From contig JAVJPD010000182.1 of NCBI GenBank assembly GCA_040216475.1, positions 1 through 26,889 of the forward strand: a stretch of DNA of 26,889 bases, given 5' to 3'. The position numbers were made by a program, and so were the translations under genes. Below are positions 5,334-23,572 of this stretch, in pieces (position 1 is the first letter of the stretch; each line of letters starts with the position of its first letter). The DNA is from Rhodospirillales bacterium (GTDB lineage: Bacteria > Pseudomonadota > Alphaproteobacteria > Rhodospirillales > CALINB01). The notes beneath the pieces were generated by a model. That model had not been told where the DNA came from, did no database searches, and saw only the letters and a list, made by a program, of their open reading frames with translations.

Positions 5334-5360
5334 CGGAAGCTCCTCCTCTGGAATATGCGT

Positions 5361-5798: not shown

Positions 5799-5822
5799 GA
5801 CGATTCTCCGTTTGACGGGGGG

Positions 5823-6161
5823 TTATTCCGGTTTGGCGCATATCGCGGCGCGGGCAAGATCGCCGCACATCTCCGGGCGGCCCTGACAGCAATCTTCCGT
5901 CAGGAACGTCAGCAGCCGGCGCATGCCCTCGAAGTCGACGGCATAGAAAATTTGGCGCTGCACCCGCCAGGAACGCAGCAATCGGGCGCGATCGAGATGC
6001 GCCAGATGGTGTGACAATGTGGGCGGACTGACCTCGAGTTTTACGGCGATGGCGCCGGCGCTGAGGCCGTTCGGCCCGGCCCGCACCAGAAGGCGAAACG
6101 CCGATAGCCGGGTCCGGTGAGCAAGGGCGCCGAGCGCCTCGGTGGCTTGATTCGTATCCAT
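5823..6161 (-). CDS. arsR: ArsR/SmtB-family repressor with C-terminal CC..C site
   Basis: ALGALAHRTRLSAFRLLV, PPTLSHHLAHL, YAVDFEGMRRLLTFLTEDCCQGRPEMC. Start placed at ATG 6161 rather than 6179 because of the promoter geometry. Confidence 0.9.
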   Translation of the reverse strand: MDTNQATEALGALAHRTRLSAFRLLVRAGPNGLSAGAIAVKLEVSPPTLSHHLAHLDRARLLRSWRVQRQIFYAVDFEGMRRLLTFLTEDCCQGRPEMCGDLARAAICAKPE

Positions 6162-6196
6162 ATTTCGATGTTTCGACAATTATCGAAATAAATCAA
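6161..6196 (-). promoter_or_regulatory. ars promoter (TTGATT-N17-AAACAT) with overlapping ArsR operator
   Basis: On the minus strand, -35 is at 6191-6196 and -10 at 6168-6173, 6 nt before ATG 6161. The inverted repeat TATTTCGAT-N12-ATCGAAATA (6161-6190) covers the spacer, -10 and start. Confidence 0.7.
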
Positions 6197-9097: not shown

Positions 9098-10090
9098 ATG
9101 ATGAAAATAGCTATTCTTGACGATTATCTCGACGTCGTGCGCGGCCTCATCGATTGGTCCGTGCTTCCCGAGGGAACGGACATCGTCCGCTTTACCGATC
9201 ATCTCACGGACGAAGCCGCCCTGGCGGAACGGCTGGCGCCGTTCGATATCGTCCTCGCCAAGCGCGAACGAACCCCCTTCCCCCGCTCGCTGTTGGAGCG
9301 CTTGCCGAATCTGAAACTCATGGTGATCGGGCGCACACACAACCGCAAGATCGACCGTGCCGCCGCCGAGGCGCTCGGCATTCTCGTAACCGGTACCGAA
9401 CGCTTCGGCTCGTCGGCCGCCGAGTTGACGTGGGGCTTGATCTTATCCCTGACGCGCAACATCCCCGGCGAGGACCGGGCGGTCCGCGCCGGACGCTGGC
9501 ACGACGGACTCGGCAAAACCCTGGCGGGGCGCACCCTCGGCGTCATCGGGCTCGGGCGCATCGGTACAAAAATCGCACGCATCGGCGCAGCGTTCGACAT
9601 GAACGTGATCGCCTGGAGCCAGAACATGACGCCGGAAAAAGCAAGCGACGCCGGCGCCCGGTATGTCGGCAAGGAGGAACTGTTCCGTGAGGCCGACGTC
9701 GTCACCGTCCATGTGGCGCTCAGCGAACGCACGCATCACCTGATCGGCGCCGGCGACCTCAGCCTGATGAAACCGACGGCCTATCTCGTCAATACGGCGC
9801 GCGGCCCGATCATCGACGAAACGGCCTTGGTCGCCGCTCTGCAGGCGGGCGCCATCGCCGGCGCCGGCCTCGATGTGTTCGAACAAGAACCGCTACCGGC
9901 CGGCCATCCGCTTCGTAGCCTGAACAATACGATCGTGACCCCGCATATCGGCTACGTCACCGAAGAAAGTTTCAAGGGCTACTATCAAAGCGCGTTGGAA
10001 AATATTCAGGCATTTCTCACGGGCCGACCCGTGCCGCGAACGCTGAATGCGCCGGCAAACCCGCGGCACTCCTATAAAGCCGCCGGTTAA
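9098..10090 (+). CDS. D-isomer-specific 2-hydroxyacid dehydrogenase family protein
   Basis: GVIGLGRIG, NTARGPI, GLDVFEQEP, TPHIG, and an MKIAILDDY N-terminus typical of this subgroup. Confidence 0.9.
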   Translation: MMKIAILDDYLDVVRGLIDWSVLPEGTDIVRFTDHLTDEAALAERLAPFDIVLAKRERTPFPRSLLERLPNLKLMVIGRTHNRKIDRAAAEALGILVTGTERFGSSAAELTWGLILSLTRNIPGEDRAVRAGRWHDGLGKTLAGRTLGVIGLGRIGTKIARIGAAFDMNVIAWSQNMTPEKASDAGARYVGKEELFREADVVTVHVALSERTHHLIGAGDLSLMKPTAYLVNTARGPIIDETALVAALQAGAIAGAGLDVFEQEPLPAGHPLRSLNNTIVTPHIGYVTEESFKGYYQSALENIQAFLTGRPVPRTLNAPANPRHSYKAAG

Positions 10091-10173
10091 AAAAATCGCG
10101 TCTAAGTTGTATGCAATTGTTGAAGGGAAACCATCCTCCGATTTGATAATCACCAATATCTAATATACAAAGG

Positions 10174-10202
10174 TTGGCTTTACAAAAAAGACAAGTATAC
10201 TA
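10174..10202 (+). promoter_or_regulatory. Sigma70-type promoter for tctB-tctA with overlapping GntR-like box
   Basis: TTGGCT (10174-10179)-N16-TATACT (10196-10201). The near-palindrome AAGTATACTA (10193-10202) covers the -10. SD AGGGGAG precedes ATG 10232. Confidence 0.5.
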
Positions 10203-10231
10203 GGGCCAACCAATTTCAGGGGAGACTTCCC

Positions 10232-10702
10232 ATGTGGGACCGCATACTCGGGTCCGGCGTCGTGGCGCTGGCCTTAGGGTATTTATTCGCAACCTACGAA
10301 TTACCGGTGAAGGATATCGGCGATCCGATCGGACCGCAGATGTTTCCCTATATGATCGGCTTCGGCACCCTGGTCTGCGGCATTTGGATTCTTTTCGAAA
10401 GCATCTTCAAAAAGCAGGAAGCCGTCGCGGCAGCCTCCGGCCAACAAACCGACGGCTACGTTAAAAGCCGGCCGCTGGCGGCGATCGGCGTTCTGGCTTG
10501 GACCGGTGTGTATTTCACGCTGTTCGAATTTCTCGGCTTCGCCATTTCCTGCACGATCTTTCTGTTCGGCATGACGTCGTTCTTCAATCGCGGGAAATGG
10601 CTTACCAACGCCCTGGTTTCGATCATTTTCTCGTTCGGCGTTTTCTACGTTTTCACACAGCTTCTCGACGTGAAACTCGCGCCGGGTCCGCTCCCGTATT
10701 AA
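10232..10702 (+). CDS. tctB: Tripartite tricarboxylate transporter small subunit TctB
   Basis: 156 aa with about four TM segments, D.IGPQMFP motif, LGFAISCT, FTQLLDVKL. Directly upstream of tctA. Confidence 0.88.
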   Translation: MWDRILGSGVVALALGYLFATYELPVKDIGDPIGPQMFPYMIGFGTLVCGIWILFESIFKKQEAVAAASGQQTDGYVKSRPLAAIGVLAWTGVYFTLFEFLGFAISCTIFLFGMTSFFNRGKWLTNALVSIIFSFGVFYVFTQLLDVKLAPGPLPY

Positions 10703-10736
10703 CCGATGGGCCTGTATTAACCGATAGGATCGTATC

Positions 10737-12254
10737 GTGGAATTCGCCAACATTCTGGATCATGTCCTACATGGCTTCACCGTTGCCTTGCAATGGAAGA
10801 ATATCATGTTCCTCTTCATCGGCGCCTTGCTCGGCACGGTGATCGGCATCATGCCGGGCATCGGCTCGTCCGCCGGCATCGCGCTGCTGCTACCGATGAC
10901 GTTCGGCATGGACCCGATCCCGTCCCTGATCATGCTCGCCGGCATCTATTACGGCGCCATGTACGGCAACACGGCGTCCGCCGTGCTGATCAACACGCCC
11001 GGCACGGCCTCGGCCTCGATGACCACCGTCGACGGCTACCCCATGGCGAAGAAAGGCCGCGGCGGCGCGGCGTTGGCGGCGTCGGCCATCGCGTCGTTTA
11101 CCGCCGGCACCATCGGCATCCTCGGCCTGACGTTCCTCTCCATTCCTTTCACCAATTTCGCGCTCAAGTTCGGCCCGGCGGAATACTTCATGCTGATGTT
11201 CTTTTCCATGTCGGCGGTTTCCTCGCTCACGGGACGCTCCGTGCCGAAGGGCCTGTTCGCCGCCTTCCTCGGCCTGATGATCGCATCCATCGGCATGGAC
11301 CTGCAGACCGGCATGCCGCGTTACGTCTTCGACATCCCGGAATTACAGACGGGCATTTCGTTCCTGATCGTGATCGTCGGCGCGTTTGCCGTCGCCGAAG
11401 TTATGCTCAACGTCGAAAAGTGGTTCGTGGGCAAGCTCGAGCCGATCAAGATTCAAGGCAGCCTGTATCTGACGCGCGAGGAATGGAAACGCTGCTGGCG
11501 GCCGATCGTTCGCGGCGGCCTGATCGGTTTCTTCATCGGCGTGCTGCCGGGCGCCGGCGGTACCATCGCCACGGTGATCGCCTATTCGACCGAGCAAAAA
11601 TTGTCCAAGCACGGACACGAATTCGGCCAGGGCGCCATCGAAGGCGTCGCCGCGCCGGAAGCCGCGAACAACGCCTCCACCTGCGGCGCGTTCGTGCCGC
11701 TGCTGACTCTCGGCATTCCCGGATCGGGCACCACCGCCGTGCTGCTCGGCGCCTTTATCCTCTACGGCCTGGAACCCGGCGCCGAATTGTTCATCACGAA
11801 CCCCGATCTGGTGTGGGGCCTGATCGACAGCATGTACCTCGGCAACGTGTTCCTGATCATCATGAACCTGCCTTTGATCGGCGTTTTCGTGCGAATCCTC
11901 TACCTGCCGCCGGGGGTTTTGCTGTCGATCATTCTGGCGGTCGCGTCGGTCGGCATCTATTCGATCAACAACAACGTGACCGATCTGTACCTGCTGCTGT
12001 TCTTCGGTGCCATGGGATACGGTTTCCGCAAACTGCAAATCCCGATTCCGCCGCTGATCCTCGGATTGGTGCTCGGCAAGCTGATGGAAAACTCGCTGCG
12101 TCAGGCCTTGATCATCTCGAACGGCAGCCTGGAGATTCTGGTCCACAGCCCCATCTGCATCACGCTGCTGGCATTGGCAATTGCCGCCATGTTGCTGCCG
12201 ATCATCAGCGCGCGCCTGAAGATTTTAAGGGCACGAGATTCGGACGACGAATGA
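10737..12254 (+). CDS. tctA: Tripartite tricarboxylate transporter large subunit TctA
   Basis: [22 protein letters not shown]...[35 protein letters not shown]. 505 aa, GTG start. Confidence 0.95.
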
Positions 12255-12372
12255 TCCGGGATCACACCCCCATCGCGATAACCAATAAACAAACGAATGA
12301 CGACTTACGCATAAAATAAGTTTGTATCGTCCGGATTCAGAAATCCAAAACTGAAAAAGGGAGACTCATCTG

Positions 12373-13374
12373 ATGTCTTTTAAAATGAATATTCTATCGT
12401 CTTCTCTGATGGCTTTAGCCATCCTCGCCCTGACCGCCTTTGCGGTCCCGGCGCAGGCCGCCTGGAAACCCGGCGATAAGATTGAAATTCTCACCGGCTG
12501 TAAAACCGGCTGCGGCCCCGACCGGATCGCCCGGGTCCTACAAAAAATCTGGCAAAAGCAGGGCCTCGTCAAATCGCGCGTCGTCGTCGTGAACAAGGCC
12601 GGCGGCGGCAATTCCATCGCCTTGACGTACCTGCAGCAGCACAAAGGCGACGGCAATTATCTGATGTTGAGCGGCTCGGCCGTCGCGACCAGCTATTACA
12701 CCGGACGCTCGCCGATCGGCACGAAGCATCTGACGGCCGTCGCGCTTCTCATTACCGAGTATATCGCCACTGCCGTTAAGCCCGACTCGCCGTATAAAAC
12801 GGCGAAGGACTTGATTGCTCAAATCAAGAAAGATCCCAAGTCGGTTGCCATCGGCACCGCCACCAGCCGCGGTAATTCCAATCATCAGGCGATCACGCTC
12901 GCCGCCATGGCCGCCGGGATCGATCCGAATTCGATGAAGTTCGTGATCTTTCAGTCGGGCCGTATAGGGCGCACCAACCTGCTCGGCGGTCACGTGGATG
13001 CAGCCCAGTCGAGTGTCGGCGGTTTTCTCAAACATCATCAGCAAGGCAAGCTGCGTATCCTCGCCGTCAGCTCCGAGGAACGACTCGGCGGCGCCATCAA
13101 GGACGTACCGACCTGGAAAGAGCAAGGCTTCGATATCGTCGTGCCGAATCTGCGCGCCCTCCTCGGTCCTTCGGACATGACCAAGGAGCAAACCGACTAT
13201 TGGGACGGCGTTCTGGAAAAGACCGTTAAAACGGAGACCTTCAAAAAGTCCCTGATCCGGCGCCAGATGAAGGCGACCTACATGGGCCACGAAAAATTCA
13301 CGCCGTATCTCCGCAAGCATGAAAAACAGATGAAGAAGGTTCTGAAAACGCTGGGTATTCTCAAGCGCGACTGA
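12373..13374 (+). CDS. tctC: TTT substrate-binding protein TctC/Bug, copy 1
   Basis: Signal peptide ending AQA-A, VVVNKAGGG, LLGGHVD, LRILAVSS..R, VPTWKEQG. 333 aa. Confidence 0.9.
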   Translation: MSFKMNILSSSLMALAILALTAFAVPAQAAWKPGDKIEILTGCKTGCGPDRIARVLQKIWQKQGLVKSRVVVVNKAGGGNSIALTYLQQHKGDGNYLMLSGSAVATSYYTGRSPIGTKHLTAVALLITEYIATAVKPDSPYKTAKDLIAQIKKDPKSVAIGTATSRGNSNHQAITLAAMAAGIDPNSMKFVIFQSGRIGRTNLLGGHVDAAQSSVGGFLKHHQQGKLRILAVSSEERLGGAIKDVPTWKEQGFDIVVPNLRALLGPSDMTKEQTDYWDGVLEKTVKTETFKKSLIRRQMKATYMGHEKFTPYLRKHEKQMKKVLKTLGILKRD

Positions 13375-13393
13375 GGAAGCCCTTCAAGCTCAC

Positions 13394-13430
13394 AAAAAAT
13401 CCGGCAATTGCGGATTGCCGGGTTTTTTTT
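13394..13430 (+). terminator. Rho-independent (likely bidirectional) terminator
   Basis: Stem CCGGCAAT (13401-13408) / ATTGCCGG (13414-13421), with an A6 run before and a T8 run after. Confidence 0.85.
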
Positions 13431-13456
13431 GCACCTGAAATCGGCGGCCTCCCATG

Positions 13457-13487
13457 CTCGACGCTGCCGAAATTTTCATGTTAGAGT
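13457..13487 (+). promoter_or_regulatory. Putative promoter of tctC copy 2
   Basis: CTCGACGCT-N13-TGT-TAGAGT. The same 9-mer and spacing recur upstream of copy 3. Confidence 0.5.
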
Positions 13488-13536
13488 AACGGCAGTCATA
13501 AAAATCTGTTTTTAAACATTCTAAGGGAGTTTAACG

Positions 13537-14538
13537 ATGAATCGCATACTACGGAGCTCGGTCTTACCTATTGCAGCCATCGCCGGTCTGGCGCTCGGCG
13601 CCGGCGCCGGCACGGCCGACGCGGCCTGGAAACCGACCAACAAGGTCGAGATTTCCGTCACCTGCAAGCCCGGCTGCGGTCCCGACCGGATCGCCCGCAT
13701 GCTGCAGAAGATCTGGAGCGTTCATAAACTCGTCGATGCCGACGTGGTCGTGCATAACAAGGCCGGCGGCGGCGGCGCCATTCAGTTGAACTACATCAAT
13801 TCCCATCCCGGCGACGGCCACTATCTCGGCATCGCCAGCGCCAGCGCGCTGACCACCTATTACACGGGCCGCACCAAGATCGGCCTGCGCGACATGACGC
13901 CGCTTGCCCTCCTGCTGACCGAATACATCGTCACCGCGGTCAAGGGCGACGGACCGATCAAGGACGCCAAGGATCTGATGGCAAGGATCAAGGCCGATCC
14001 GCAATCGGTGTCGATCGGCACGGCGACCAGCCGCGGCAACGCCAACCACCAGGCGATCTCGCTCGCCGCCCTGCGCAGCGGCATCGACCCGAAGAAGATG
14101 AAGTTCGTCATCTTCCAATCCGGCCGGATCGGGCGCACCAACCTGATCGGCGGACATGTCGATGTCGCTCAATCCAGCGCCGGCGGCTTCCTGAACGCCC
14201 ACAAGCAGGGCAAGCTGCGCATCGTCGCCGTCAGTTCGCCCGAGCGCCTGGGCGGGCCGGCCAAGAACGTACCGACCTGGAAAGAACTCGGCCTCGATGT
14301 GGTCATCGGCAACTTCCGGGCGATGATGGGCCCGAAGGGCATGACCAAGGACCAGATCGCCTATTGGGATGGGGTTTTCGCGAAAACCGTCAAGACCAAG
14401 GAATTCCAAAAATCGCTGACCAAACGCCAGATGAAGGAAACCTTCATGAAGCACGATGACTTTATGAAGTTCATCGACAAGGAAGAAAAACAGATCAAGG
14501 AAATCCTGGACGCTCTGGGAATCCTGAAGGTCAAATAA
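13537..14538 (+). CDS. tctC: TTT substrate-binding protein TctC/Bug, copy 2
   Basis: Signal peptide ending ADA-A, VVVHNKAGGGG, LIGGHVD, VPTWKELG. 333 aa, SD AGGGAG. Confidence 0.9.
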   Translation: MNRILRSSVLPIAAIAGLALGAGAGTADAAWKPTNKVEISVTCKPGCGPDRIARMLQKIWSVHKLVDADVVVHNKAGGGGAIQLNYINSHPGDGHYLGIASASALTTYYTGRTKIGLRDMTPLALLLTEYIVTAVKGDGPIKDAKDLMARIKADPQSVSIGTATSRGNANHQAISLAALRSGIDPKKMKFVIFQSGRIGRTNLIGGHVDVAQSSAGGFLNAHKQGKLRIVAVSSPERLGGPAKNVPTWKELGLDVVIGNFRAMMGPKGMTKDQIAYWDGVFAKTVKTKEFQKSLTKRQMKETFMKHDDFMKFIDKEEKQIKEILDALGILKVK

Positions 14539-14591
14539 TTCCGCCGCGGCGGAACAAGAACCCGGCAGCCGCTTCGGCTGCCGGGTTTTTT
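14539..14591 (+). terminator. Rho-independent terminator preceded by a 16-bp palindrome
   Basis: TTCCGCCGCGGCGGAA at 14539-14554, then stem AACCCGGCAGCCG/CGGCTGCCGGGTT (14559-14587) running into a T6 tract. Confidence 0.85.
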
Positions 14592-14661
14592 GATGAATTT
14601 TTCTAAGCCGCCGCGGCCGGACCGAACGGTCCGGGAAAAGACGGCCCGGCGCATCATCCCA

Positions 14662-14692
14662 CTCGACGCTCGTCTCGACCGCGTGGTAAAAC
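14662..14692 (+). promoter_or_regulatory. Putative promoter of tctC copy 3
   Basis: CTCGACGCT-N13-TGG-TAAAAC, same architecture as 13457-13487. Confidence 0.45.
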
Positions 14693-14775
14693 TTCTCTAG
14701 CAAGCCGGAAACTAGGTACCACCCCCAGGCACCGGACGTGCCGGTTTGTTTTCATATCAACTGGAGGTAAAGAAG

Positions 14776-15777
14776 ATGCGCTTGGTGTTTCGCTCCAAAG
14801 CGTTGCCGGCTGCGCTACTGGCCGGCTTAACCCTGACTTTTCATTCGGCAACCGTCGAGGCGGCCTGGAAGCCGACCAAGAAAGTCGAAATTTCCGTCAC
14901 CTGCAAACCGGGATGCGGTCCCGATCAAATCGCCCGCTTGCTGCAGAAAATCTGGAAAACCGAAAAGATCACGCCTGTCGATACGGTCGTGCACAACAAG
15001 GCCGGCGGCGGCGGCGCGGTGCAGCTGAACTACATCAATTCCCATCCCGGCGACGGCCACTATCTCGGCATCGGCAGCGCCAGTTCGCTCACGACCTATT
15101 ACACGGGCCGAACCAAGATCGGCCTGCGCGACGTGACGCCGCTCGTATTGCTGGTGACCGAATACATCGTCACCGCGGTCAAGGGCGATTCGCCGATCAA
15201 ATCGGCCAAGGAGTTGCTGGCCCAAATCAAGAAGGACCCGGCGTCCCTGTCGATCGGCACGGCGACCAGCCGCGGCAACGCCAACCATCAGGCGATCTCG
15301 CTCGCCGCCCTTCGCGCCGGCATTGATCCCAAGAAAATGAAGTTCGTCATTTTCCAATCGGGCAGCATCGGCCGGACCAACCTGCTCGGCGGACACGTCA
15401 ACGTCGCGCAATCGAGTGCCGGCGGATTCCTGAAGCACCACAAGCAGGGCAAGCTGCGCATCCTCGCCGTCAGTTCGCCCGAACGCCTCGGCGGCGAAGC
15501 GAAGGACGTGCCGACCTGGAAGGAACTCGGCTACGACTTCGAAGTCGGCAACTTCCGCTCGGTCATGGGCCCAAGCGGCATGACCAAGGATCAGATCGCC
15601 TATTGGGAAGACGTCTTCTCCAAGACCGTCAAGACCAAGGAGTGGCAGCAGTTCCTGAATCGGCGCCAGATGGCCAATGCCTATCTGCCGCATAGTGAAT
15701 TTCTCAAGTTCCTCGACAAGGAAGAAAAGCAGATCAAGGAAGTCCTGGACGCGCTGGGAATCCTGAAGGTCAAATAA
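14776..15777 (+). CDS. tctC: TTT substrate-binding protein TctC/Bug, copy 3
   Basis: Start moved to ATG 14776 after SD GGAGG (14763-14767), giving 333 aa. About 60 differences from copy 2 over ~304 mature residues by hand count. Confidence 0.9.
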   Translation: MRLVFRSKALPAALLAGLTLTFHSATVEAAWKPTKKVEISVTCKPGCGPDQIARLLQKIWKTEKITPVDTVVHNKAGGGGAVQLNYINSHPGDGHYLGIGSASSLTTYYTGRTKIGLRDVTPLVLLVTEYIVTAVKGDSPIKSAKELLAQIKKDPASLSIGTATSRGNANHQAISLAALRAGIDPKKMKFVIFQSGSIGRTNLLGGHVNVAQSSAGGFLKHHKQGKLRILAVSSPERLGGEAKDVPTWKELGYDFEVGNFRSVMGPSGMTKDQIAYWEDVFSKTVKTKEWQQFLNRRQMANAYLPHSEFLKFLDKEEKQIKEVLDALGILKVK

Positions 15778-15798
15778 CCGGCCTTCGATCATTGCACA

Positions 15799-15835
15799 CG
15801 CCCGGCGGTCGACATCGGCCGCCGGGCGCTTTATT
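15799..15835 (+). terminator. GC-rich hairpin with weak U-tract after tctC copy 3 (terminator or attenuator)
   Basis: CGCCCGGCGG (15799-15808) / CCGCCGGGCG (15819-15828) followed by CTTTATT. Confidence 0.5.
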
Positions 15836-15879
15836 GTGTGAAAATCGACGGAACAAAAACGACACCCGGGGAGAGCACC

Positions 15880-16641
15880 GTGACAACGACTCAAGAACTC
15901 GCGGGCATGACCGCTATCGTGACCGGCGCGGCGCGCAACATCGGCCGGGCCATCGCCCTCGACCTGGCGGCCGGCGGCGCCAAGGTCTGCGTGAACGCGA
16001 ATACGTCCAAGAAGGACGCCGAGGAAACCGCCGCCCTCATCGAAAAAGCCGGCGGCGAGGCATTCGTTCACATCGCCGACGTTACCGACCCCAAGGCCGT
16101 GCAAGGCATGGTCGACGCGGTTCTGAAACGGTTCGGCGGGATCGATATTCTCGTCAATAACGCCGCCGCGCGCGAGGAATTCCCGTTCGAGGAGATCACC
16201 TTCGAATCCTGGAAAAAACTTTCCGCGATCATTCTGGACGGCGCTTTTCTCTGTTGCCAGGCTTGTCTGCCCGAACTCAAGAAATGCGGCCACGGATCGA
16301 TCGTCAACATCGGCGGCCAATCGGGCGATTGCGGCATGACCGAGCGTGCCACCATCTCGGCCGCCAAGGCCGGGCTCGCCGGTTTTACGCGCGGCGTCGC
16401 CATGGATATCGCCCACTACGGCATTACCGTGAACTACGTCTCGCCGGGCCCCGTCAACACCCAGGGCAGCATGATGGTCCGCCACGCCCAGACATCGTTC
16501 AAAAAGAAACGTCAGACGCCGATCGGCCGTTCCGTGGAGCCCGCCGAAATCGCGGCCATGGTCCGCCATCTTTGCGGCCCCAAGGCGCGTGCGATCACGG
16601 GACAGAAGATCATGATCAACGGCGGCATTCTGATGGTTTAA
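15880..16641 (+). CDS. SDR-family oxidoreductase with non-canonical catalytic motif (IxxxK)
   Basis: TGAARNIGRAIA, DILVNNAA, VNYVSPG, ITGQ.I.INGG. GTG 15880 follows SD GGGGAG. Confidence 0.85.
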   Translation: MTTTQELAGMTAIVTGAARNIGRAIALDLAAGGAKVCVNANTSKKDAEETAALIEKAGGEAFVHIADVTDPKAVQGMVDAVLKRFGGIDILVNNAAAREEFPFEEITFESWKKLSAIILDGAFLCCQACLPELKKCGHGSIVNIGGQSGDCGMTERATISAAKAGLAGFTRGVAMDIAHYGITVNYVSPGPVNTQGSMMVRHAQTSFKKKRQTPIGRSVEPAEIAAMVRHLCGPKARAITGQKIMINGGILMV

Positions 16642-16680
16642 GGGTATAGCATTAGAATCGCAGGGGAAAAGGAAAGAAGC

Positions 16681-17661
16681 ATGAAAATCGTATACTCGCT
16701 GGCTTGGGAAATCGATCCGTTCGAGCCGATCAAGGAGACCTTTCCGGGTGTCGAGTGGGTCAGGGCCAGCGCCTTGGACGGCTTCGGCGACGTGCTCGGC
16801 GACGCCGACGGCCTGATCGTCAGCGCGACCCAGTACAACGCCAAGGTCGCCGATGAAATCAAACAAAAGGCCAAGAAGCTCCGCTGGATGCAATCGGCCG
16901 CCATCGGGATCGACAATTTCGTCAAGTTCGGCATCCCCGACGGCGTAACGCTCACCAACGCGGCCGGACTCAAGGGCGGCACCGTTTCCGAACACACGTT
17001 CGCCCTGTTGATGGCGCTTTCGCGCGCGACCGTGCATATGGAACGTTTCCGTGCCGCCGGAGAATGGCAAAACGATCTGGTCCGCACCCTGATCACGCCG
17101 CTCGAAGGCCGTACCATGGTCATCGTCGGCTACGGCTCGATCGGCCAGCAACTGGGCCGCAAGGCCAAGGCGTTCGACATGAACGTGATCGCCGTCAGCC
17201 GCTCCGGCACGAGCGACGAGAATGCCGACAAGGCCGTCACGGTCGACAAACTGCTCGATGTTCTGCCCGAAGCCGACGTCGTCGCCGTGGTGCTGCCGTC
17301 GAATCCGGACTCTCACCACCTGATCGACGCCAAGGCCTTCGCCGCCATGAAGAAAGGCGCGATTTTCGTCAACACCGGCCGCGGCGCGACCATGGACGAA
17401 AAGGCACTCGTCGCCGCCTTGCAAAGCGGCCATCTCGGCGGCGCCGGACTCGACGTTTTCGAGGTCGAGCCCCTGTCCGCCGACAGCCCGCTCTGGACGA
17501 TGGACAACGTCGTGCTGTCGCCGCACATCGCCGGCACCAGCGATCGCACCTACGCCCTGTTCGTCGATCTGGTCCGCGGCAATATCGAGCGGTTTCAAAA
17601 AGGCGAGCCGCTGCGGCACGCCATCCCGGCGGAGATGCTCAAAACGACGAACGCCGCCTGA
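16681..17661 (+). CDS. D-2-hydroxyacid dehydrogenase family protein
   Basis: WMQSAAIGID, IVGYGSIG, NTGRG, GLDVFEVEPL, SPHIAG. Confidence 0.9.
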   Translation: MKIVYSLAWEIDPFEPIKETFPGVEWVRASALDGFGDVLGDADGLIVSATQYNAKVADEIKQKAKKLRWMQSAAIGIDNFVKFGIPDGVTLTNAAGLKGGTVSEHTFALLMALSRATVHMERFRAAGEWQNDLVRTLITPLEGRTMVIVGYGSIGQQLGRKAKAFDMNVIAVSRSGTSDENADKAVTVDKLLDVLPEADVVAVVLPSNPDSHHLIDAKAFAAMKKGAIFVNTGRGATMDEKALVAALQSGHLGGAGLDVFEVEPLSADSPLWTMDNVVLSPHIAGTSDRTYALFVDLVRGNIERFQKGEPLRHAIPAEMLKTTNAA

Positions 17662-17700
17662 TCCGGCGGCGCTCGGTTGTCGTCACATTTCCCTGGGTGA

Positions 17701-18855
17701 TCACGGCCCCTCGTCGGAGATCTGGCGGGTGACCCGGATGTCGAACTGCTCGTAGGGAATCTTCCTGAGCGCCGCCTCGTCGACTTCAATGCCGAGACCG
17801 GGGCCGGTCGGTAATTGGATGTAACTGTCTTTTTGTATCATCGGATTGCCCGGCGAAAGTTGCTGCGCCAGCGGTTCGTAGGGCACGAAGTATTCCGCGA
17901 TGATGAAGTTCGGCATCAGCGCGCAGGCGTGAATCGAGGCCGCCATCCCGACCAGGGTCGAGTTGTAGTTATGCGGCGACATCGCCACGTAATAGGGCTC
18001 CGCCATCGCGCCGATTTCCTTGAGCTTCAGAATGCCGCCGCAGCTGCCGACGTCGGGGTTGAGAATATCGGCGGCTTCGTTCACGAGCACGTCGCGGAAT
18101 CCCGCGGTGGTGTGAATGCCCTCGCCGGTTACCACCGGCAGGGAAATGTTCGCCCGGATTTCCGCGAGCGCATCGACGTTCTCCGCCGTGCACGGCTCCT
18201 CGAACCAATAGAGGTTGAACTCCTCCAACCGCTCGGCGAGACGTGCCGCGTGATGAGGCGACAGTTTGCGGCTGAGATCGACCATGAGATTGATATCCGG
18301 GCCGACCGCGTCGCGCACGGCGCGCACGTTGGCGACGGCGTCATTTTCCTGTTTGGCGCTGACGAAGGTCCGCGCGGCGCCGGTCAGACAGTAGAATTTC
18401 ATCGCCGTGAAACCGAGTTTCGCGGTCTTCTCCGCGGCGCGGGCGAAATCGTCCGGAGTCTTGCAGCCGAACGCCCAGCCGTTGGCATAAACATAGAACT
18501 TGTCGCGCACCGGCCCGCCGAGCAGGTTGTAAACCGGCTGGTCGAGAGCCTTGCCGACGATGTCCCACAATGCGATCTCGATCCCCGACAGCGCCGAGTA
18601 GAACTCGAGCGAGGCGCGCCGCGCGGCGCCGTCGTTGAAGGCGATTTCCGTGAAATATTTGATCTGAAACGGATCGCGCCCGATCAGGTAGCGCGCGAGT
18701 TCCTCGACCATGACGGCGGTTGCGCGTTCACGATCGTGATGCGTGAACGCCTCGCCCCACCCGATGATACCGTCGTCGGTCGTAACCTTGACATAAGCGA
18801 GGTTCTTGCGGAAATCGCTTCGAAACAGAAAACATTCGACGGACTTGACCTTCAT
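17701..18855 (-). CDS. Mandelate racemase/muconate lactonizing enzyme family, acid-sugar dehydratase-like
   Basis: VKVTTDDGIIGWGE, SGIEIALWDIVGK, LLGG, metal ligands in VD / FEEP / TGE, PHN, PGLGIEVD. Confidence 0.9.
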   Translation of the reverse strand: MKVKSVECFLFRSDFRKNLAYVKVTTDDGIIGWGEAFTHHDRERATAVMVEELARYLIGRDPFQIKYFTEIAFNDGAARRASLEFYSALSGIEIALWDIVGKALDQPVYNLLGGPVRDKFYVYANGWAFGCKTPDDFARAAEKTAKLGFTAMKFYCLTGAARTFVSAKQENDAVANVRAVRDAVGPDINLMVDLSRKLSPHHAARLAERLEEFNLYWFEEPCTAENVDALAEIRANISLPVVTGEGIHTTAGFRDVLVNEAADILNPDVGSCGGILKLKEIGAMAEPYYVAMSPHNYNSTLVGMAASIHACALMPNFIIAEYFVPYEPLAQQLSPGNPMIQKDSYIQLPTGPGLGIEVDEAALRKIPYEQFDIRVTRQISDEGP

Positions 18856-18901
18856 GTAATGACTCCCCCTGGGATTGATATCGCGTTGGTGCCGTTAATC
18901 T

Positions 18902-19858
18902 TTAATCTTGAACGTTGAGATAGCCACGCGGATGCGGCGGCTTGGCAAAGGCTGCCGGATCGCACGTCGTCGGGTCGCCGTCGAGCTGACAGCGCTTGGC
19001 GATACGATCCTGGCCCGGCGGGATGGCGTTGCGGTGATGCATGACGGCGCGGTTGTCCCACATCAGAATGTCGCCCTCGCGCCATTTGTGGTGCCACTGG
19101 AACTCGGGCTTGGTCGCGTGTGCCCAAAGCTCATCGAGCAGCGCCTCCGAGTCCTCGAGCGTCAGGCCGTTGACGTAGGCGAACGGACGGCGCCCCAAAT
19201 AGAGCGCGTTGTAGCCGGTTTTCGGATGGGTGCAGACGATCGGATGGTTCGGCCCCGGACTGGTGCGGATATCCCCCGGCGGTTTTTGGTTGCCGCGCAA
19301 CTGGCCGCCGCTGTTGTAGGCGGCGTCGTTCTTGATGCTGAGGCCCTTGATGCGTTCACGCGTCGCCTCGGGCAGGGTTTCAAGCGCCAGGTACATGTTG
19401 CAAAAACCGGTCTCGCCGCCCCGCTCCGGCGCCAAGGTGCCGTACAGCACGCTGTAGCTGAGCGGGATTTCCCGATAGGAATGATCCGTGTGCCAGACGA
19501 CCTCCTTGTCGCCGAACTGGCCGATCGGCACGCCGTTTTCCTTGATGTTGGAATTGATACCGATATAGGGGTTGGTCCGCGCCTTCATGCCTTTCGGCGA
19601 TTCTTCCGGCTTCGAGCCGGGACGCAGCACGCCGAAGTGCCGGGCGAAGTCGAGCTGATCCTCGTCGGTCAATTCCTGATCGCGAATCAGGATCACCAGG
19701 TTATCCAACAGCGCCCGATGGACGACCGCGGCGGTCGCGTCGTCAATGGCCTTGACGTCGCCGCAGCGCACTTCCGCGCCGAGCGCATGGGGTAACGGAA
19801 TGACCTCGATTTGGCCGTTATGGCTCAGGCCAACCTCTTCTAGCGCGACCGTCGACAT
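18902..19858 (-). CDS. TauD/TfdA-family Fe(II)/2-oxoglutarate dioxygenase
   Basis: WHTD (HxD), GGETGF, HPIVCTHP.TG, LYLG, WREGDILMWDNR.VMH, distal R. ATG 19858 with SD GGAGG. Confidence 0.92.
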   Translation of the reverse strand: MSTVALEEVGLSHNGQIEVIPLPHALGAEVRCGDVKAIDDATAAVVHRALLDNLVILIRDQELTDEDQLDFARHFGVLRPGSKPEESPKGMKARTNPYIGINSNIKENGVPIGQFGDKEVVWHTDHSYREIPLSYSVLYGTLAPERGGETGFCNMYLALETLPEATRERIKGLSIKNDAAYNSGGQLRGNQKPPGDIRTSPGPNHPIVCTHPKTGYNALYLGRRPFAYVNGLTLEDSEALLDELWAHATKPEFQWHHKWREGDILMWDNRAVMHHRNAIPPGQDRIAKRCQLDGDPTTCDPAAFAKPPHPRGYLNVQD

Positions 19859-20031
19859 GATTCGGCCTCCCTTTGTTAAAAAAAGTTTGTTCGGCAAAGA
19901 GTTTCAGAAGATGATTCGATTGTAGCGCGTATATTACGTTTATGTAAATAACCCCCTGGCGGAATGTTCGTCTTATGATTAAGCTGGCGGCACGTCCGTA
20001 TCATCACTCTTTCATAACCAGGGAGGCGCAC

Positions 20032-20892
20032 ATGGCCAATAATATGGCCAAGGATAATGCTTGGCTCGACAAACCGTCGTTCGATTTTCTCACCATTCCG
20101 ACCGCAAAACCGAAGCCGCGCAAAGACCGCTGGACCGTGATGAGCGACCGCTCGATCCCGACCAAGTTCGTCGACGATTATTTGACGTACAACGGCAACC
20201 TGATCGACGAGGTCAAGTTCGTCGACTTCACGGGGATTCACCGGATCAGCGCGCGCACCATCGTCGAAAAAAACAAGGTGTATAAGAAATACGGTATCCC
20301 GACGTTTCCGGGCGGGGTCGCCTTCGAGATCGCCTACCTGCAGGGCAAGGTCGACGAATTTTACGAACGCGTTATCGAACTGGGTTTCACGGGCATGGAA
20401 GTCAGCACCGATTCGATGCCGGAATTGCTGCGCGAGGAACGATCCGCCCTGATCAAGAAGGGTACCGGCATGGGGCTTCAGGTCTTTACCGAAGTCGGCA
20501 AGAAATTCTTCGACGATCCGTTCCCGGCGGAAGAAGCCGTGAGGTGCATCCAGGCGGATCTCGACGCCGGCGCCGTCAAGGTCGTGCTCGAAAACACGGA
20601 ATTGATGCACTATCACCAAAACGATGCGGAAACGCTGCGCCGGATCATCGAGCCGGTCGGCCTCGAAAATCTGATTCTCGAAATCGGCCGCAACGGCTGG
20701 CCGCACCTGACCATGTGGCTGTTGCGCGAATACGGCCCCGACATCAACGTCGAAAACATCGAGCACGACCGCATCGCCACGCTCGAGGGCATGCGCCGCG
20801 GCCTGCAACGGATCATGGGCTACGAATATCTCAGCACGATCCAAAACAAGCCCCCGCTCGACCTGCACGACCTCAAGGACCAGGCCGGCTGA
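20032..20892 (+). CDS. Divergent phosphosulfolactate synthase (ComA)-family TIM-barrel protein
   Basis: KPR..WTV.SD, IDEVKF, PGG..FE.AY, LGF..MEVS, EER..LI, TEVGKK, DLDAGA..V..E, GP..N..N, LE..RRGL. ATG 20032 after SD GGGAGG. Confidence 0.85.
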   Translation: MANNMAKDNAWLDKPSFDFLTIPTAKPKPRKDRWTVMSDRSIPTKFVDDYLTYNGNLIDEVKFVDFTGIHRISARTIVEKNKVYKKYGIPTFPGGVAFEIAYLQGKVDEFYERVIELGFTGMEVSTDSMPELLREERSALIKKGTGMGLQVFTEVGKKFFDDPFPAEEAVRCIQADLDAGAVKVVLENTELMHYHQNDAETLRRIIEPVGLENLILEIGRNGWPHLTMWLLREYGPDINVENIEHDRIATLEGMRRGLQRIMGYEYLSTIQNKPPLDLHDLKDQAG

Positions 20893-20898
20893 GCTGAT

Positions 20899-22236
20899 AT
20901 GGATGTAACCCGCCGCCTCGCCCGGTTCGCGCTCGAGCTCAAGCCCGAGGACGTCCCCGAGTCCGTGCGCCACGATGCGAAACGCTCGCTGATCAACTTT
21001 CTCGGCTGCTCGATCGGCGGCGCCCAGCATGAAACCGTCGACAAGCTGACGGCGGCGACCGTACCGTTCGCGGGCCCGGCGCAGGCGAGCGTGCTGGGCC
21101 GCGGCGAACGGCTCGATATCGTGAACGCCGCCCTGATTAACGGCACCAGCTCGGCGGTGCTCGACTTCGACGCGACGCAAGCGAAGAAGACCAACATCCA
21201 CCCGAGCGGCCCGGCGGCACCCGTGTGCCTGGCGCTTGCCGAATATGCCCCCGTCAGCGGCGGCGATTTCCTGCATGCGTTTATCCTGGGCGTCGAGATC
21301 GAGTGCCGCATCGCCAACACGGTGTTCGGCGCGAAGAACCCGGGCTGGCACGTGACCAGCGTGTGCGGCGGCTTCGGCGCGGCCGCCGCCGCCGGCCGGG
21401 TGCTCGGGCTCGACGAGCAGCAACTGGTCTGGGCGTTCGGGATTGCCGCCAACCTCGCCGGCGGCATCCGCGAAAACTACGGCACCATGGTCAAAAGTTT
21501 CGCGCCCGGGGTGGCGGCGCGCAACGGCCTCACCGCGGCCCTGATGGCGCAACAAGGCTTCGTGAGCGACGACCGCGCGCTCGAGGGTTCCAAGGGGTTC
21601 GCCGCCGCCATGACCGGCGTGGCCGATTTGAAAGCGCTCACCGAGAACTTCGGCAAGGACTTCGAGATTTCCTATAATACCTACAAGGCTTTCGCCTGCG
21701 GCATCGTGACCCACGCCAGTGTCGACGGCTGCATCCAACTCAGAAACGAGAACCGCTTGCAGCCCGAGCGGATCGTACGGGTTTCGCTCCGGGTCAGCCC
21801 GAATACGCTGCTGCTGACCGGCAAGCCGGAGCCGCGAACCGGGCTTGAGGGTAAATTCAGCGTTTATCATGCCGCCGCCGCCGCGCTTATCGACGGCGCC
21901 GCCGGCGAAGCCCAGTTCACCGACAAACGCGTTCACGATCCCTCCGTCATCGCGCTGCGCAAATGCATCACGGCGCAGGCCGAGGAAAGCATCGGCAAAT
22001 ACGAAGCCTATGTGAGCATCGAACTCGATGACGGACGCAAACTCGAACGCCACGTCGAGCATGCATTGGGGTGCCTGGAAAACCCCATGAGCGACAACGA
22101 CCTCATCACCAAGTATAATGAGCTGGTGAGCGGGGTTTTCCCCGACAAACAACGCGACGAACTGGCCGAGCTGTGCTGGTCGGCCGATACTCTCAGCGAC
22201 GCCGCCGTCCTCGCACGCGCGGCGGTGAAGACGTAA
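20899..22236 (+). CDS. MmgE/PrpD-family protein
   Basis: AALINGT...LDFD, HPS, GVEI.CRI, GWH.T...G.FGAAAAA, AARNGL.AA, LEG.KGF, YK.FACG..TH, KFS. Confidence 0.9.
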   Translation: MDVTRRLARFALELKPEDVPESVRHDAKRSLINFLGCSIGGAQHETVDKLTAATVPFAGPAQASVLGRGERLDIVNAALINGTSSAVLDFDATQAKKTNIHPSGPAAPVCLALAEYAPVSGGDFLHAFILGVEIECRIANTVFGAKNPGWHVTSVCGGFGAAAAAGRVLGLDEQQLVWAFGIAANLAGGIRENYGTMVKSFAPGVAARNGLTAALMAQQGFVSDDRALEGSKGFAAAMTGVADLKALTENFGKDFEISYNTYKAFACGIVTHASVDGCIQLRNENRLQPERIVRVSLRVSPNTLLLTGKPEPRTGLEGKFSVYHAAAAALIDGAAGEAQFTDKRVHDPSVIALRKCITAQAEESIGKYEAYVSIELDDGRKLERHVEHALGCLENPMSDNDLITKYNELVSGVFPDKQRDELAELCWSADTLSDAAVLARAAVKT

Positions 22237-22247
22237 AGAGGAACCCC

Positions 22248-22814
22248 GTGAAAAGCATCCTGCTGATCGGCGACATGATCAACGATATCATCCATCCCGA
22301 CGGGCCGAACAAATACGGCGAGGAACTCGCCCGGCGCGACACCATCGCCAATACCGCAACCGTGATCGCCAAGGCCCGTGCCGCCGGCGTGCCCGTTGGT
22401 TACATCCGAGTCGGCTTTTCGCCCGATTACCGGGAATGCCCGCCGCACTCGAAAATCTTCCAGGGCGCGAAAAAGAGCGGCATCTTCAAACTCGGCACCT
22501 GGGGCACGGAAGTCCATCCCGATCTCGCGCCGCAGGAGAGCGATTTCGATATCGTCAAGCACCGCGTCAGCCCGTTTTACGGCACCGATTTGGAGCCGCT
22601 TCTCAAGGCTCAAGGCGTCGAGCGAATCTACATCTGCGGCGTTTCCACCGGCGGCGTGGTGATGTCGGTTGCCAAGGAAGGCCACGATAGAGATTATAAC
22701 ATCGTCATCATCGACGACTGCTGCTGCGCCGGCAGCGAGGACGAACACCGGTTCCTGCTGAACAATATGGCGCGCTTCGCCGGCGTAACGACAAGCGCCG
22801 AGATCGAGTTTTGA
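22248..22814 (+). CDS. Isochorismatase/cysteine-hydrolase family protein lacking the catalytic Cys
   Basis: LLIGDMIND, GTWGTEVHPDLAP, KHRVSPFYGTDLE..L, GVSTGGVV, GHDRDY..V.I.DCC. GTG 22248 with SD AGAGGA. Confidence 0.85.
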   Translation: MKSILLIGDMINDIIHPDGPNKYGEELARRDTIANTATVIAKARAAGVPVGYIRVGFSPDYRECPPHSKIFQGAKKSGIFKLGTWGTEVHPDLAPQESDFDIVKHRVSPFYGTDLEPLLKAQGVERIYICGVSTGGVVMSVAKEGHDRDYNIVIIDDCCCAGSEDEHRFLLNNMARFAGVTTSAEIEF

Positions 22815-23572
22815 ACGTAATGAAGGACTCCGACGGAGCCGTTCTCCATAAGCGTACGGATGAACGCCGCGACAGTTGGCGCCAAAAACCGGTATTGCGG
22901 GTTCTCTACGAAGATTACTACGATCGCATTCTGTCTTTTTGCGCCGACGGGCCGATCCTGGAGATCGGTGCCTCGACCGGCGGCATAAAAACGCTGCGCC
23001 CCGACGCCGTCTGCACCGACGTTCAGGTCCTGCCCTGGTTGGATTCCGTTGTCGATGCCCATTGCTTGCCTTTTAAGGATCAAGCATTTTCCAATATCAT
23101 CATGATCGACGCGCTTCATCATTTCGAATCGCCTTATGTATTTTTTAAGGATGCCCTGCGCGTTCTACCGCCCGGCGGCCGACTCGTCATGATGGAGCCC
23201 GCCATTACCCCCGTAAGCTGGATCGTTTTCAATTTTATGCATCCGGAACCCGTGGATCTCCAAGAGAACCCCCTATCGCGGCGGCAGTTGAGCGGAGCTA
23301 AGCGTGACCCGTTCGACGATGCAAACCAAGCGATTCCGACGACGCTGTTTGGCCGGCACCGCCGCACGTTCGAACAGGAATTCCCGGAATTCAAAATTAT
23401 TCACCATCAGCATTTTTGCGTTCTCTCCTATCTCCTGTCGGGTGGATTTCGCTCCTGGAGTCTGCTTCCCCGATCGGCCGCGCCGACTTTCCTGAAAGTA
23501 GAGCGCGTGCTCGATAAGATTTTGGGACCGTTTATGGCGTTCCGACTGCTTACCGTTCTTGAGCGGACTTAA
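22811..23572 (+). CDS. Class I SAM-dependent methyltransferase
   Basis: ILEIGASTG motif I, DAH.LPF, D.LHH, RVL.PGGR..MMEP. Start is either TTG 22811 or ATG 22820. Confidence 0.8.
   Translation: MNVMKDSDGAVLHKRTDERRDSWRQKPVLRVLYEDYYDRILSFCADGPILEIGASTGGIKTLRPDAVCTDVQVLPWLDSVVDAHCLPFKDQAFSNIIMIDALHHFESPYVFFKDALRVLPPGGRLVMMEPAITPVSWIVFNFMHPEPVDLQENPLSRRQLSGAKRDPFDDANQAIPTTLFGRHRRTFEQEFPEFKIIHHQHFCVLSYLLSGGFRSWSLLPRSAAPTFLKVERVLDKILGPFMAFRLLTVLERT

Follow-up and report, generated by a model that had tools for sequence, protein, structure and literature searches.

The stretch examined here, called the window throughout, is contig C182 (JAVJPD010000182.1; 26,889 nt), one of the 771 contigs of a 3.2-Mb Rhodospirillales metagenome-assembled genome (MAG; G000), and between positions 9098 and 22814 it holds a cluster of catabolic genes. 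These code for a tripartite tricarboxylate transporter (TTT) with the membrane subunits TctB and TctA and three receptors (TctC1, TctC2 and TctC3, numbered in window order), two D-2-hydroxyacid dehydrogenases (A and H), a short-chain dehydrogenase/reductase (SDR; G), an enolase-superfamily enzyme (I), a TauD-family dioxygenase (J), a ComA-like protein (K), an MmgE/PrpD-family protein (L) and an isochorismatase-family hydrolase (M). All of these genes had been listed in an earlier note made from the letters of the window alone, and each is present where it was placed and scores above its Pfam gathering threshold (Table 1). The cluster is real and is conserved within one Rhodospirillales genus. 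It is a previously undescribed TTT-linked acid-catabolism cluster, organized around a TTT importer and a dehydratase/ComA-like pair. The earlier note knew of no described pathway with this gene set, and we found none in the literature; searches on ComA with SAR202, ComA with TauD, PF02679 and ComA active-site residues gave nothing usable, and those on MmgE, TauD and TTT together gave nothing relevant.

A fixed core and a variable fringe

The same gene order is present in two further genomes of the genus (G001 and G002) and in a fourth genus lineage that comes from metagenomes (L088), with protein identities to the window of 62-92%. TctB, TctA, at least one TctC, H, I, K, L and M are intact in all four lineages, and identities within the genus reach 85-92% for TctA, 82-92% for I and 84-90% for M. 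Other parts of the locus vary from lineage to lineage. The number of TctC genes is one in G001, two in G002 (one of them frameshifted) and three in the window. The G001 copy of J has a frameshift. In G002 and L088 no J gene separates I from K, and a different TauD, 33% identical to J in G002, stands upstream of A instead. A is split into three open reading frames (ORFs) in L088, a split seen in at least two separate assemblies, SDR G is missing from L088, and an extra enolase-superfamily gene sits between L and M in G002 and L088. This comparison of intact genes with broken or variable ones sets a fixed core apart from a variable fringe, and the fringe, made up of J, A, the Tyr-less SDR G and the extra TctC copies, consists of lineage-specific additions amid a paralogue-crowded genome.

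The earlier note had described a coherent catabolic region whose genes were clustered together, while allowing that some of them might be unrelated accretions, and had made co-occurrence in other genomes a test of the idea. Both halves of that description stand: the order is kept in four genus lineages and sub-sets of the genes recur in unrelated ones, which is beyond chance, and J, A, the SDR and the number of TctC genes are what varies or is broken between lineages.

Broken copies of fringe genes lie at L015:8889-9867, L016:4738-5650, L088:3492-4464, L095:4594-5432 and G000:C728:2969-3799. A ComA copy resembling clade I (described below) is split in G002:C2, and the copy in G000:C728 has two TAA stops. 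The broken copies may be assembly errors, with the exception of the split in A, which occurs in several assemblies.

The ComA-like protein and its neighborhoods

K belongs to the ComA family without being a canonical member of it. A profile built from K and homologous proteins hits M. jannaschii ComA (1QWG) at E 2e-48. K still has K-P-R at its N-terminus and R-G near its C-terminus, and it keeps the T-E-V-G-K-K strand as well as conserved Glu residues. Against the NCBIfam equivalog TIGR03849 it scores 137.2 bits, short of the cut-off of 280. K and its clade have other residues in place of every one of the motifs G-F-G-T-S, P-G-G-T, S-D-G-T, E-(A/G)-R-E-S-G, W-E-A-P and L-R-x-D, a canonical set defined by sequence alone as those common to 1QWG and Bacillota/Chloroflexota loci, and in K the R-E-S-G loop falls six residues short of its length in the canonical proteins. 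A search for ComB (PF04029) was negative in G000, G001 and G002 (completeness 95-98%) and positive in control genomes. On these grounds (the missed equivalog cut-off, the replaced motifs and the undetected ComB in three genomes) K was rejected as a canonical ComA. The genomes of the genus hold 8-11 ComA-family matches each, none of them canonical, with at least five other subtypes. The family as a whole is small, with only 1,520 members at E <= 0.001 among 1.84 billion representatives, and crude motif patterns find the canonical motifs in 22 of the 150 representatives nearest to K. An Atlas look-up returned ComA-named clusters only, and K-type genes were sought in cultured plasmids, where none exceeded 30% identity to K.

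A neighborhood analysis seeded with the ComA-like protein, as the earlier note had proposed, drew on 67 fetched loci and a maximum-likelihood tree. K falls in a clade I with support of 100/99, whose sister, clade II, has support of 100/100, and clade I genes stand beside a TctC both in the window genus and outside it, where the hosts are another family of Rhodospirillales, Betaproteobacteria from groundwater and one unassigned contig. Counting that contig, a TctC adjoins a 51-54% K homologue on two unassigned contigs, the 54% homologue (not placed in the tree) lying in a LysR-TctC-ComA contig. The TctCs that adjoin clade I genes at L017, L019-L021 and L033 have the window TctCs as their best match in G000, and the receptors of G005 and L090 are 39-43% identical to TctC2. 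The operon of G005 runs TctB-TctA-FAH hydrolase-TctC-ComA. In the Betaproteobacteria, clade I neighbors include LysR regulators, CoA-transferases, amidohydrolases, a flavin reductase and ornithine-cyclodeaminase-family and Amdase-like genes, with no sulfur gene among them in the loci examined.

Clade II adjoins a TauD gene, and its TauD type matches the G000 paralogues on C67, C412 and C568 (about 60% identity) rather than J (about 40%). J was accordingly rejected as the conserved partner of K, since the ComA-linked TauDs elsewhere match other paralogues and belong with clade II. Two arguments find no support here. The step from ComA adding sulfite to a sulfite-related chemistry at this locus loses its footing with the canonical motif set gone and 137 bits scored against 280, and the idea of TauD as the natural partner of the ComA-like protein does not agree with a clade I linked to TctC and a clade II linked to a different TauD type. 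What is upheld of the earlier interpretation is the coherent, undescribed catabolic locus with its accretions. K is probably a Mg-dependent lyase or hydratase, and the cluster probably holds a new activity in the ComA family.

Recurrence outside the genus

Relatives of I at about 60% identity on long contigs provide five foreign contexts. A ComA-family gene lies directly upstream of the enolase gene in three of them, overlapping it in two; it belongs to clade I, at 47-48% identity to K, and around these three pairs are TTT genes, an HIBADH-like or 2-hydroxyacid dehydrogenase, a Tyr-less SDR, a TauD and an EamA transporter. The enolase gene is paired with MmgE/PrpD in the other two contexts, one of which also has three TauD genes, and two further relatives of I at 56-58% identity have none of these partners. 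The genomes of the genus themselves carry a paralogous (sister) block with the order PrpD-SDR-ComA(clade I)-ComA(type B)-enolase(64% to I)-EamA, followed at some distance by a 2-hydroxyacid dehydrogenase 45% identical to H. These foreign contexts and the paralogous block are why we regard TTT, dehydrogenase, SDR-like protein, clade I ComA, enolase subgroup, PrpD and TauD as a recurrent guild and not as a single accretion.

At L099:4165-7875 and L018:9968-12892, an enolase gene is directly preceded by a tandem run of two or three ComA-family genes that differ in subtype, the last of which overlaps it. ComA is a trimer with shared active sites, and mixed oligomers of such tandem ComA-family proteins are conceivable.

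Cultured bacteria offer two related patterns. Among cultured bacteria, I has its best homologues in Shinella (48%; locus Q9314_19540-19565) and Azospirillum (44%; A. argentinense D3093_RS24605-24645), where they are flanked by genes for RraA-type 4-carboxy-4-hydroxy-2-oxoadipate aldolase/oxaloacetate decarboxylase; an NAD(P) oxidoreductase is present at both loci, and the Azospirillum locus also has TctC, TctB, TctA and a TauD/TfdA gene. Because the RraA-type genes flank the enolase gene, a Mg-dependent pyruvate lyase can be said to hold the slot of ComA in these cultured loci. On plasmid p53363 of Bradyrhizobium guangxiense CCBAU 53363 (L103:4346-9807; X268_RS35930-35945 for the TctC, PrpD, PrpF and ComA-like genes), IclR and TctC genes accompany an overlapping MmgE/PrpD-PrpF-ComA-like operon, whose ComA-like protein is of another subtype, 27% identical to K and 61% identical to a different ComA-family copy in G000. 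Judged from gene position, both patterns would fit a ComA-like enzyme whose substrate is what a partner dehydratase makes, an unsaturated or 2-oxo-3-deoxy acid.

The TTT receptors

The transporter genes qualify as a TTT system by family membership: TctA, TctB and TctC occur together, all above their family cut-offs, and the receptor N-termini carry a signal peptide ending in A-x-A before the mature protein. The canonical Gly-Gly-x-x-Asp loop after the first strand is absent, and all three window TctCs read C-K-(P/T)-G-C-G-P-D there instead; the Cys-x-x-x-Cys loops lie at 12499-12513, 13663-13677 and 14902-14916. The closest TctC structure, 4X9T, has the usual Gly-Gly loop. The Cys loop is confined to the genus, where it is found in every copy of that TctC clade, including the one on G000:C345, and it does not occur in orthologues of 38-43% identity from other lineages. 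We considered it as a hallmark of the ComA-linked TctC clade and rejected this, since the Betaproteobacterial orthologues have the Gly-Gly loop. TctC1 has an 82% orthologue in G002. TctC2 is the sole copy kept in G001, where it is 92% identical, and is the best G000 match of the Betaproteobacterial TctCs that adjoin ComA-like genes. TctC3, at 80% identity to TctC2, is a recent tandem copy of it.

The enolase-superfamily gene and the remaining enzymes

None of the enzymes of the window reaches an NCBIfam equivalog cut-off. I scores 269 bits against NF010624 (galactonate dehydratase; cut-off 311), and its nearest solved structure is 2POZ, an uncharacterized putative dehydratase. The 383-residue subgroup to which it belongs is very large: a threshold of E <= 1e-40 gathers 4,810 proteins, whose sources include MAGs of Rhodospirillales, "Lambdaproteobacteria" and Dehalococcoidia. 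The two D-2-hydroxyacid dehydrogenases, A and H, both keep the catalytic Arg/Glu/His motifs, and H has a 45% paralogue in the sister block.

The SDR was noticed early on as atypical, and it is: G has NIGG for the Ser strand and I-S-A-A-K for Y-x-x-x-K, with Ile at the Tyr position, so that the classical Ser-Tyr-Lys set is lacking. The Tyr/Ser-less state is common to G, its G002 orthologue, several paralogues and SDRs that adjoin ComA-like genes elsewhere. Tyr-less SDR paralogues are found on G000 contigs C522, C747, C578, C568 and C455 and at L010, L083 and L096, and they repeatedly adjoin ComA-like genes; some have a His two residues earlier, and the copies in the sister block also lack the Lys.

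J has the W-H-T-D-H, distal H-H and D-R-I-A-K-R elements, that is, the iron triad and both Arg residues of the TauD/TfdA family. It scores 131.5 bits against the TauD equivalog PRK09553 (cut-off 313) and is about equally distant from RdpA, TfdA, TauD and AtsK. The nearest solved relative of L is iminodisuccinate (IDS) epimerase (2HP0, E 2e-44), followed by cis-aconitate decarboxylases, and its scores against the PrpD equivalogs of NCBIfam are 48, 41 and 34 bits, with cut-offs of 950, 575 and 458. M resembles E. coli YecD (aligned to PDB 1J2R) and has Val at the position of the Cys nucleophile, where YecD has Gly, so the Asp-Lys-Cys triad is incomplete. Neither a lactonase (PF08450) nor an HpcH-type aldolase (PF03328) is among the window genes; HpcH genes are present elsewhere in the G000 genome.

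Paralogue density and the sulfonate equipment of the host

The 3.1-3.2-Mb genomes of the genus are crowded with paralogues of the families found in the cluster, with 38-53 TauD matches each (38-50 genes, about 45 in G000), 39-43 of MmgE/PrpD, 16 of the enolase superfamily, 10-12 of the TauE family, 8-11 of the ComA family and 13-25 of TctC. About 8 PrpD genes lie within 36 kb on G002:C13. TauD matches in the same order number 23 in G005, 57 in G027 and 0-2 in most other genomes. The resulting density is about one TauD per 60-70 kb and one PrpD per about 75 kb, and by a rough calculation a 14-kb cluster would hold a TauD by chance about one time in five. Equally rough counts for G002 find no TauD enrichment near ComA-family genes (1 of 8 within 5 kb, about 1.4 expected) and a mild enrichment of PrpD (3 of 8 within 5 kb, about 1.2 expected). 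The functional case therefore rests on recurrence across lineages and on the paralogous block, and not on genes being neighbors inside a single genome.

The host is also equipped for sulfonates. Xsc exceeds its cut-off in G001 and G002, and G000:C170 (L091:600-7495) carries a sulfonate locus of canonical appearance, in which SauS, at 777 bits and over its cut-off, stands beside TctA, TctB and TctC, followed by a 95-aa ORF and a 402-aa GD_AH protein without the SAF domain, which make up a SuyAB-type split dehydratase. A SorA-like gene lies near two TauD genes in the host genome. The window holds no gene of the sulfite-exporter or sulfite-oxidase families. At L095 (G002:C2:256000-268000), 5 kb contain the split ComA-like gene together with a divergent TauD and genes of the PFK kinase and TauE families; this is a second divergent ComA/TauD pair, in this case accompanied by a putative sulfite exporter.

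Organization and boundaries of the cluster

Several gene starts were re-placed behind GGAGG-like sites, moving J to 19858 (from 19897), K to 20032 (from 19975) and M to 22248 (from 22173), and with these starts the gaps are only 6 nt between K and L and 11 nt between L and M. Consensus scans also found a second hairpin at the convergent junction of H and I and a promoter-like match for J at 19948-19919 (10/12). Taken together, the hairpins and the convergent and divergent junctions imply at least four transcription units in the region. A look-up of sequencing runs listed no RNA run for the region, and a single DNA run contained 5% of its words.

Table 1. Features of the cluster and its immediate surroundings in the window
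Feature	Place in cluster	Coordinates	Strand	Evidence
A, D-2-hydroxyacid dehydrogenase 1	accessory	9098-10090	+	Pfam 2-Hacid_dh_C, 215 bits
TctB, small membrane subunit of TTT transporter	core	10232-10702	+	Pfam TctB, 80.9 bits
TctA, large membrane subunit of TTT transporter	core	10737-12254	+	Pfam TctA, 520 bits
TctC1 receptor, signal peptide, Cys-x-x-x-Cys loop		12373-13374	+	Pfam TctC, 96.7 bits
TctC2 receptor		13537-14538	+	Pfam TctC, 93.3 bits
TctC3 receptor		14746-15777	+	Pfam TctC, 87.7 bits
Terminator-like hairpin, strong, 13 pairs (12 G-C), in gap between TTT genes and SDR		15799-15828	+	consensus scan only
G, SDR fold without catalytic Tyr and Ser	variable part	15838-16641	+	Pfam adh_short_C2, 191.7 bits
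H, D-2-hydroxyacid dehydrogenase 2	core	16681-17661	+	Pfam, 201.6 bits
I, enolase-superfamily dehydratase, galactonate-dehydratase-like group	core	17701-18855	-	Pfam MR_MLE_C and MR_MLE_N
J, TauD/TfdA-family Fe(II)/2-oxoglutarate dioxygenase	accessory	18902-19858	-	Pfam TauD, 210 bits
AT-rich divergent intergenic region between J and K, promoter-like site for TauD gene		19859-20031	.	sequence read
K, ComA family, non-canonical clade I	core	20032-20892	+	Pfam ComA, 156.4 bits (gathering score 25.2)
L, MmgE/PrpD family, IDS-epimerase-like	core	20899-22236	+	both Pfam domains
M, YecD-type isochorismatase-family hydrolase	core	22248-22814	+	Pfam, 143.7 bits
Methyltransferase, start overlaps M stop		22811-23572	+	Pfam Methyltransf_11

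The limits proposed earlier for the cluster hold on both sides. Upstream are an ars operon and an ABC-2 exporter, of unrelated families; the ars-type operon lies within 4081-6179 and comprises ArsR-like, glyoxalase-fold, low-molecular-weight phosphatase/ArsC-like and aquaglyceroporin genes. Downstream of M come the methyltransferase and then a GMC-like oxidoreductase and an epimerase-like gene (23569-26456). The methyltransferase has no counterpart in the G001 and G002 loci searched, and in L088 a glycosyltransferase takes its place 3' of M; since it is not conserved in the other genomes, it probably lies outside the pathway. The GMC-like and epimerase-like genes have a lower third-position GC content (GC3) of about 0.6 and, at thresholds of 35% identity and 60% coverage, went unmatched in the G001 and G002 stretches searched. 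A 930-aa open frame on the - strand (14827-17619) lies antisense to TctC3, the SDR and H. Its GC3 of 0.60 is below the 0.73-0.85 of the sense genes, and we therefore take it as a by-product of high GC.

A proposed route and its alternatives

Our preferred explanation, to which we would give a probability of roughly one half, is that the fixed core and the variable fringe together make up a single catabolic locus, which imports a sugar-acid or hydroxy-polycarboxylate and degrades it through dehydration and a ComA-like step. From the gene content and its conservation, which are observed, we infer the chemistry as follows. A periplasmic TctC would bind an acidic hydroxy-carboxylate, either of the sugar-acid kind or a hydroxy-polycarboxylate, for import through TctAB. 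Dehydration by I, L or both would then yield a 2-oxo-3-deoxy acid or an alpha,beta-unsaturated acid. If K applies the Mg-stabilized enolate chemistry of its family to this dehydration product, it would do so as a lyase or hydratase (by retro-aldol cleavage, beta-elimination or Michael addition of water) rather than as a synthase joining phosphoenolpyruvate (PEP) and sulfite. A 2-hydroxyacid dehydrogenase could interconvert the resulting 2-hydroxy and 2-oxo acids, and the Cys-less YecD-like hydrolase M may complete a further step. Several observations count against this explanation. The full gene set never recurs beyond the genus, where only pairs or trios are seen, and with about 45 TauD, 40 PrpD and 16 enolase-superfamily copies in the genome some adjacency is to be expected by chance. 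The cluster contains no regulator gene. The scheme gives no account of the SDRs without catalytic residues that are linked to ComA-like genes, and we know of no substrate or activity for the non-canonical ComA-family members, the enolase subgroup of I or YecD.

The same genes could be read as a route for a sulfonated acid, such as a 6-deoxy-6-sulfo-aldonate or a sulfolactate-type compound, which we regard as possible without favoring it. I would then dehydrate its substrate as SfcF does sulfogalactonate, K would run ComA chemistry in reverse and take sulfite off a 3-sulfo-2-oxy acid, the 2-hydroxyacid dehydrogenases would handle sulfolactate and sulfopyruvate, and TauD would free sulfite from a related sulfonate. 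C-S bond formation is, after all, the only known chemistry of ComA, and the host is a sulfonate degrader, with Xsc, the SauS/TTT/SuyAB-type locus, a SorA-like gene and the many TauE-family and TauD genes counted above. In sulfoglycolysis a C3 sulfonate product is excreted, and the EamA transporter-family gene that adjoins the enolase gene in the sister blocks would fit this if it exports that product. There are precedents for parts of the route: a Paracoccus galactonate-dehydratase-like enzyme of the enolase superfamily acts on 6-deoxy-6-sulfogalactonate (bioRxiv 10.1101/2023.08.01.551581), and in SAR11 a TTT paralogue is flanked by two ComA-family genes, with phosphosulfolactate proposed as its substrate (PMC11796062). 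Against these stand a window without sulfite exporter, sulfite dehydrogenase or aldolase, a K that has kept none of the canonical motifs beyond the catalytic core and is missing one loop, and a J that the genus can dispense with. The Betaproteobacterial TctC/ComA-like pairs have carboxylate-catabolism genes and no sulfur genes around them, carboxylate chemistry (pyruvate-aldolase or aconitase-like logic) is what the cultured analogues suggest, the genome already has a SuyAB-type lyase for sulfolactate, and a Tyr-less SDR cannot be a normal sulfosugar dehydrogenase. A biosynthetic role, with K as a true phosphosulfolactate synthase making sulfolactate or a coenzyme-M-like compound, would agree with the Pfam assignment of K to PF02679 and with the public homologue records that bear the name phosphosulfolactate synthase, but the low TIGR03849 score and lost motifs, the lack of a detectable ComB, and the 8-11 ComA-family copies per genome, which adjoin uptake genes, make it very improbable.

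The paralogue density raises the different idea that there is no single pathway, and that two or three unrelated modules (the TTT operon, SDR plus dehydrogenase, enolase plus TauD, and ComA-PrpD-hydrolase) were simply joined in a crowded genome. The four or more transcription units, the strong hairpin after the TctC genes, the convergent and divergent junctions, the spacing of TauD and PrpD genes, and a composition that varies between lineages, with the full set confined to the genus, would all be natural in such a mosaic. We nevertheless consider it unlikely, as the core order is held across four lineages while the flanks change, the same combination of families recurs as a separate paralogous block, and it recurs again in foreign contigs, down to overlapping ComA and enolase reading frames.

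ComA is, to our knowledge, known for a single reaction, and yet its non-canonical clades occupy uptake and catabolic contexts. Were clade I the lyase partner of the abundant enolase subgroup of I, this would be a new activity for the ComA family, and uncultured bacteria would gain an annotated route for acidic, possibly sulfonated, dissolved organic matter. Parts of this reading can be tested at the cultured Bradyrhizobium, Shinella and Azospirillum loci. A still broader and decidedly tentative proposal is that non-canonical ComA-family proteins are Mg-dependent lyases or hydratases of diverse mechanism that have gone unrecognized as a group, each partnering an enolase-superfamily or MmgE/PrpD dehydratase on compounds that dedicated TTT receptors deliver, that in this genus they belong to a large toolkit (about 45 TauD, 40 PrpD and 10 ComA-like genes in 3.2 Mb) for mineralizing sulfonated or otherwise recalcitrant acidic organic matter, and that K would carry out a new C-S or C-C cleavage.

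Comparison with known systems

Among known systems K is close to the phosphosulfolactate synthases ComA/YitD/XcbB1 (PF02679; 1QWG, 1U83), with which it shares a fold family, K-P-R, T-E-V-G-K-K, the Glu residues and R-G; it differs in lacking the canonical motifs, in belonging to a separate TctC-linked clade and in coming from a genome without a detected ComB. Chromohalobacter salexigens takes up and degrades sulfolactate by SlcHFG-SlcC/ComC-SuyAB (a system cited in bioRxiv 10.1101/2023.08.01.551581), and the window resembles this system in placing a TTT importer beside 2-hydroxyacid dehydrogenases and a lyase-type enzyme. The window has no SuyAB, no ComC-family (Ldh_2) dehydrogenase and no sulfite-handling gene. 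Its genome does carry the SauS/TTT/SuyAB-type locus on C170, whose TctC is not among the matches of the window TctCs at E<=1e-10.

The D-glucarate/galactarate pathway, GudD-GarL-GarR, leads from an enolase-superfamily dehydratase to a Mg-dependent pyruvate lyase and an NAD(P) reductase. The window and the Shinella and Azospirillum loci, with their 44-48% relatives of I, share this logic of dehydratase, pyruvate lyase and reductase, but where the aldolase would stand, the window and its marine relatives have a ComA-family protein, and we know of no aldolase activity in the ComA family. The methylcitrate cycle uses the dehydratase/isomerase set PrpD or AcnD-PrpF, and here the likeness lies in an MmgE/PrpD protein translationally packed with the next enzyme and, on the Bradyrhizobium plasmid, in a TctC beside PrpD-PrpF-ComA-like genes. 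L differs from PrpD itself (48 bits against 950), being nearest to IDS epimerase, and the window lacks PrpC and PrpB. The sulfofucose Entner-Doudoroff pathway of Paracoccus wurundjeri (SfcH/D/F/E; bioRxiv 10.1101/2023.08.01.551581) likewise combines an SDR fold and a galactonate-dehydratase-like enzyme in one cluster. The window differs from it in having neither lactonase nor HpcH aldolase, in its TTT rather than ABC uptake and in its Tyr-less SDR, and I is likened to SfcF by family only.

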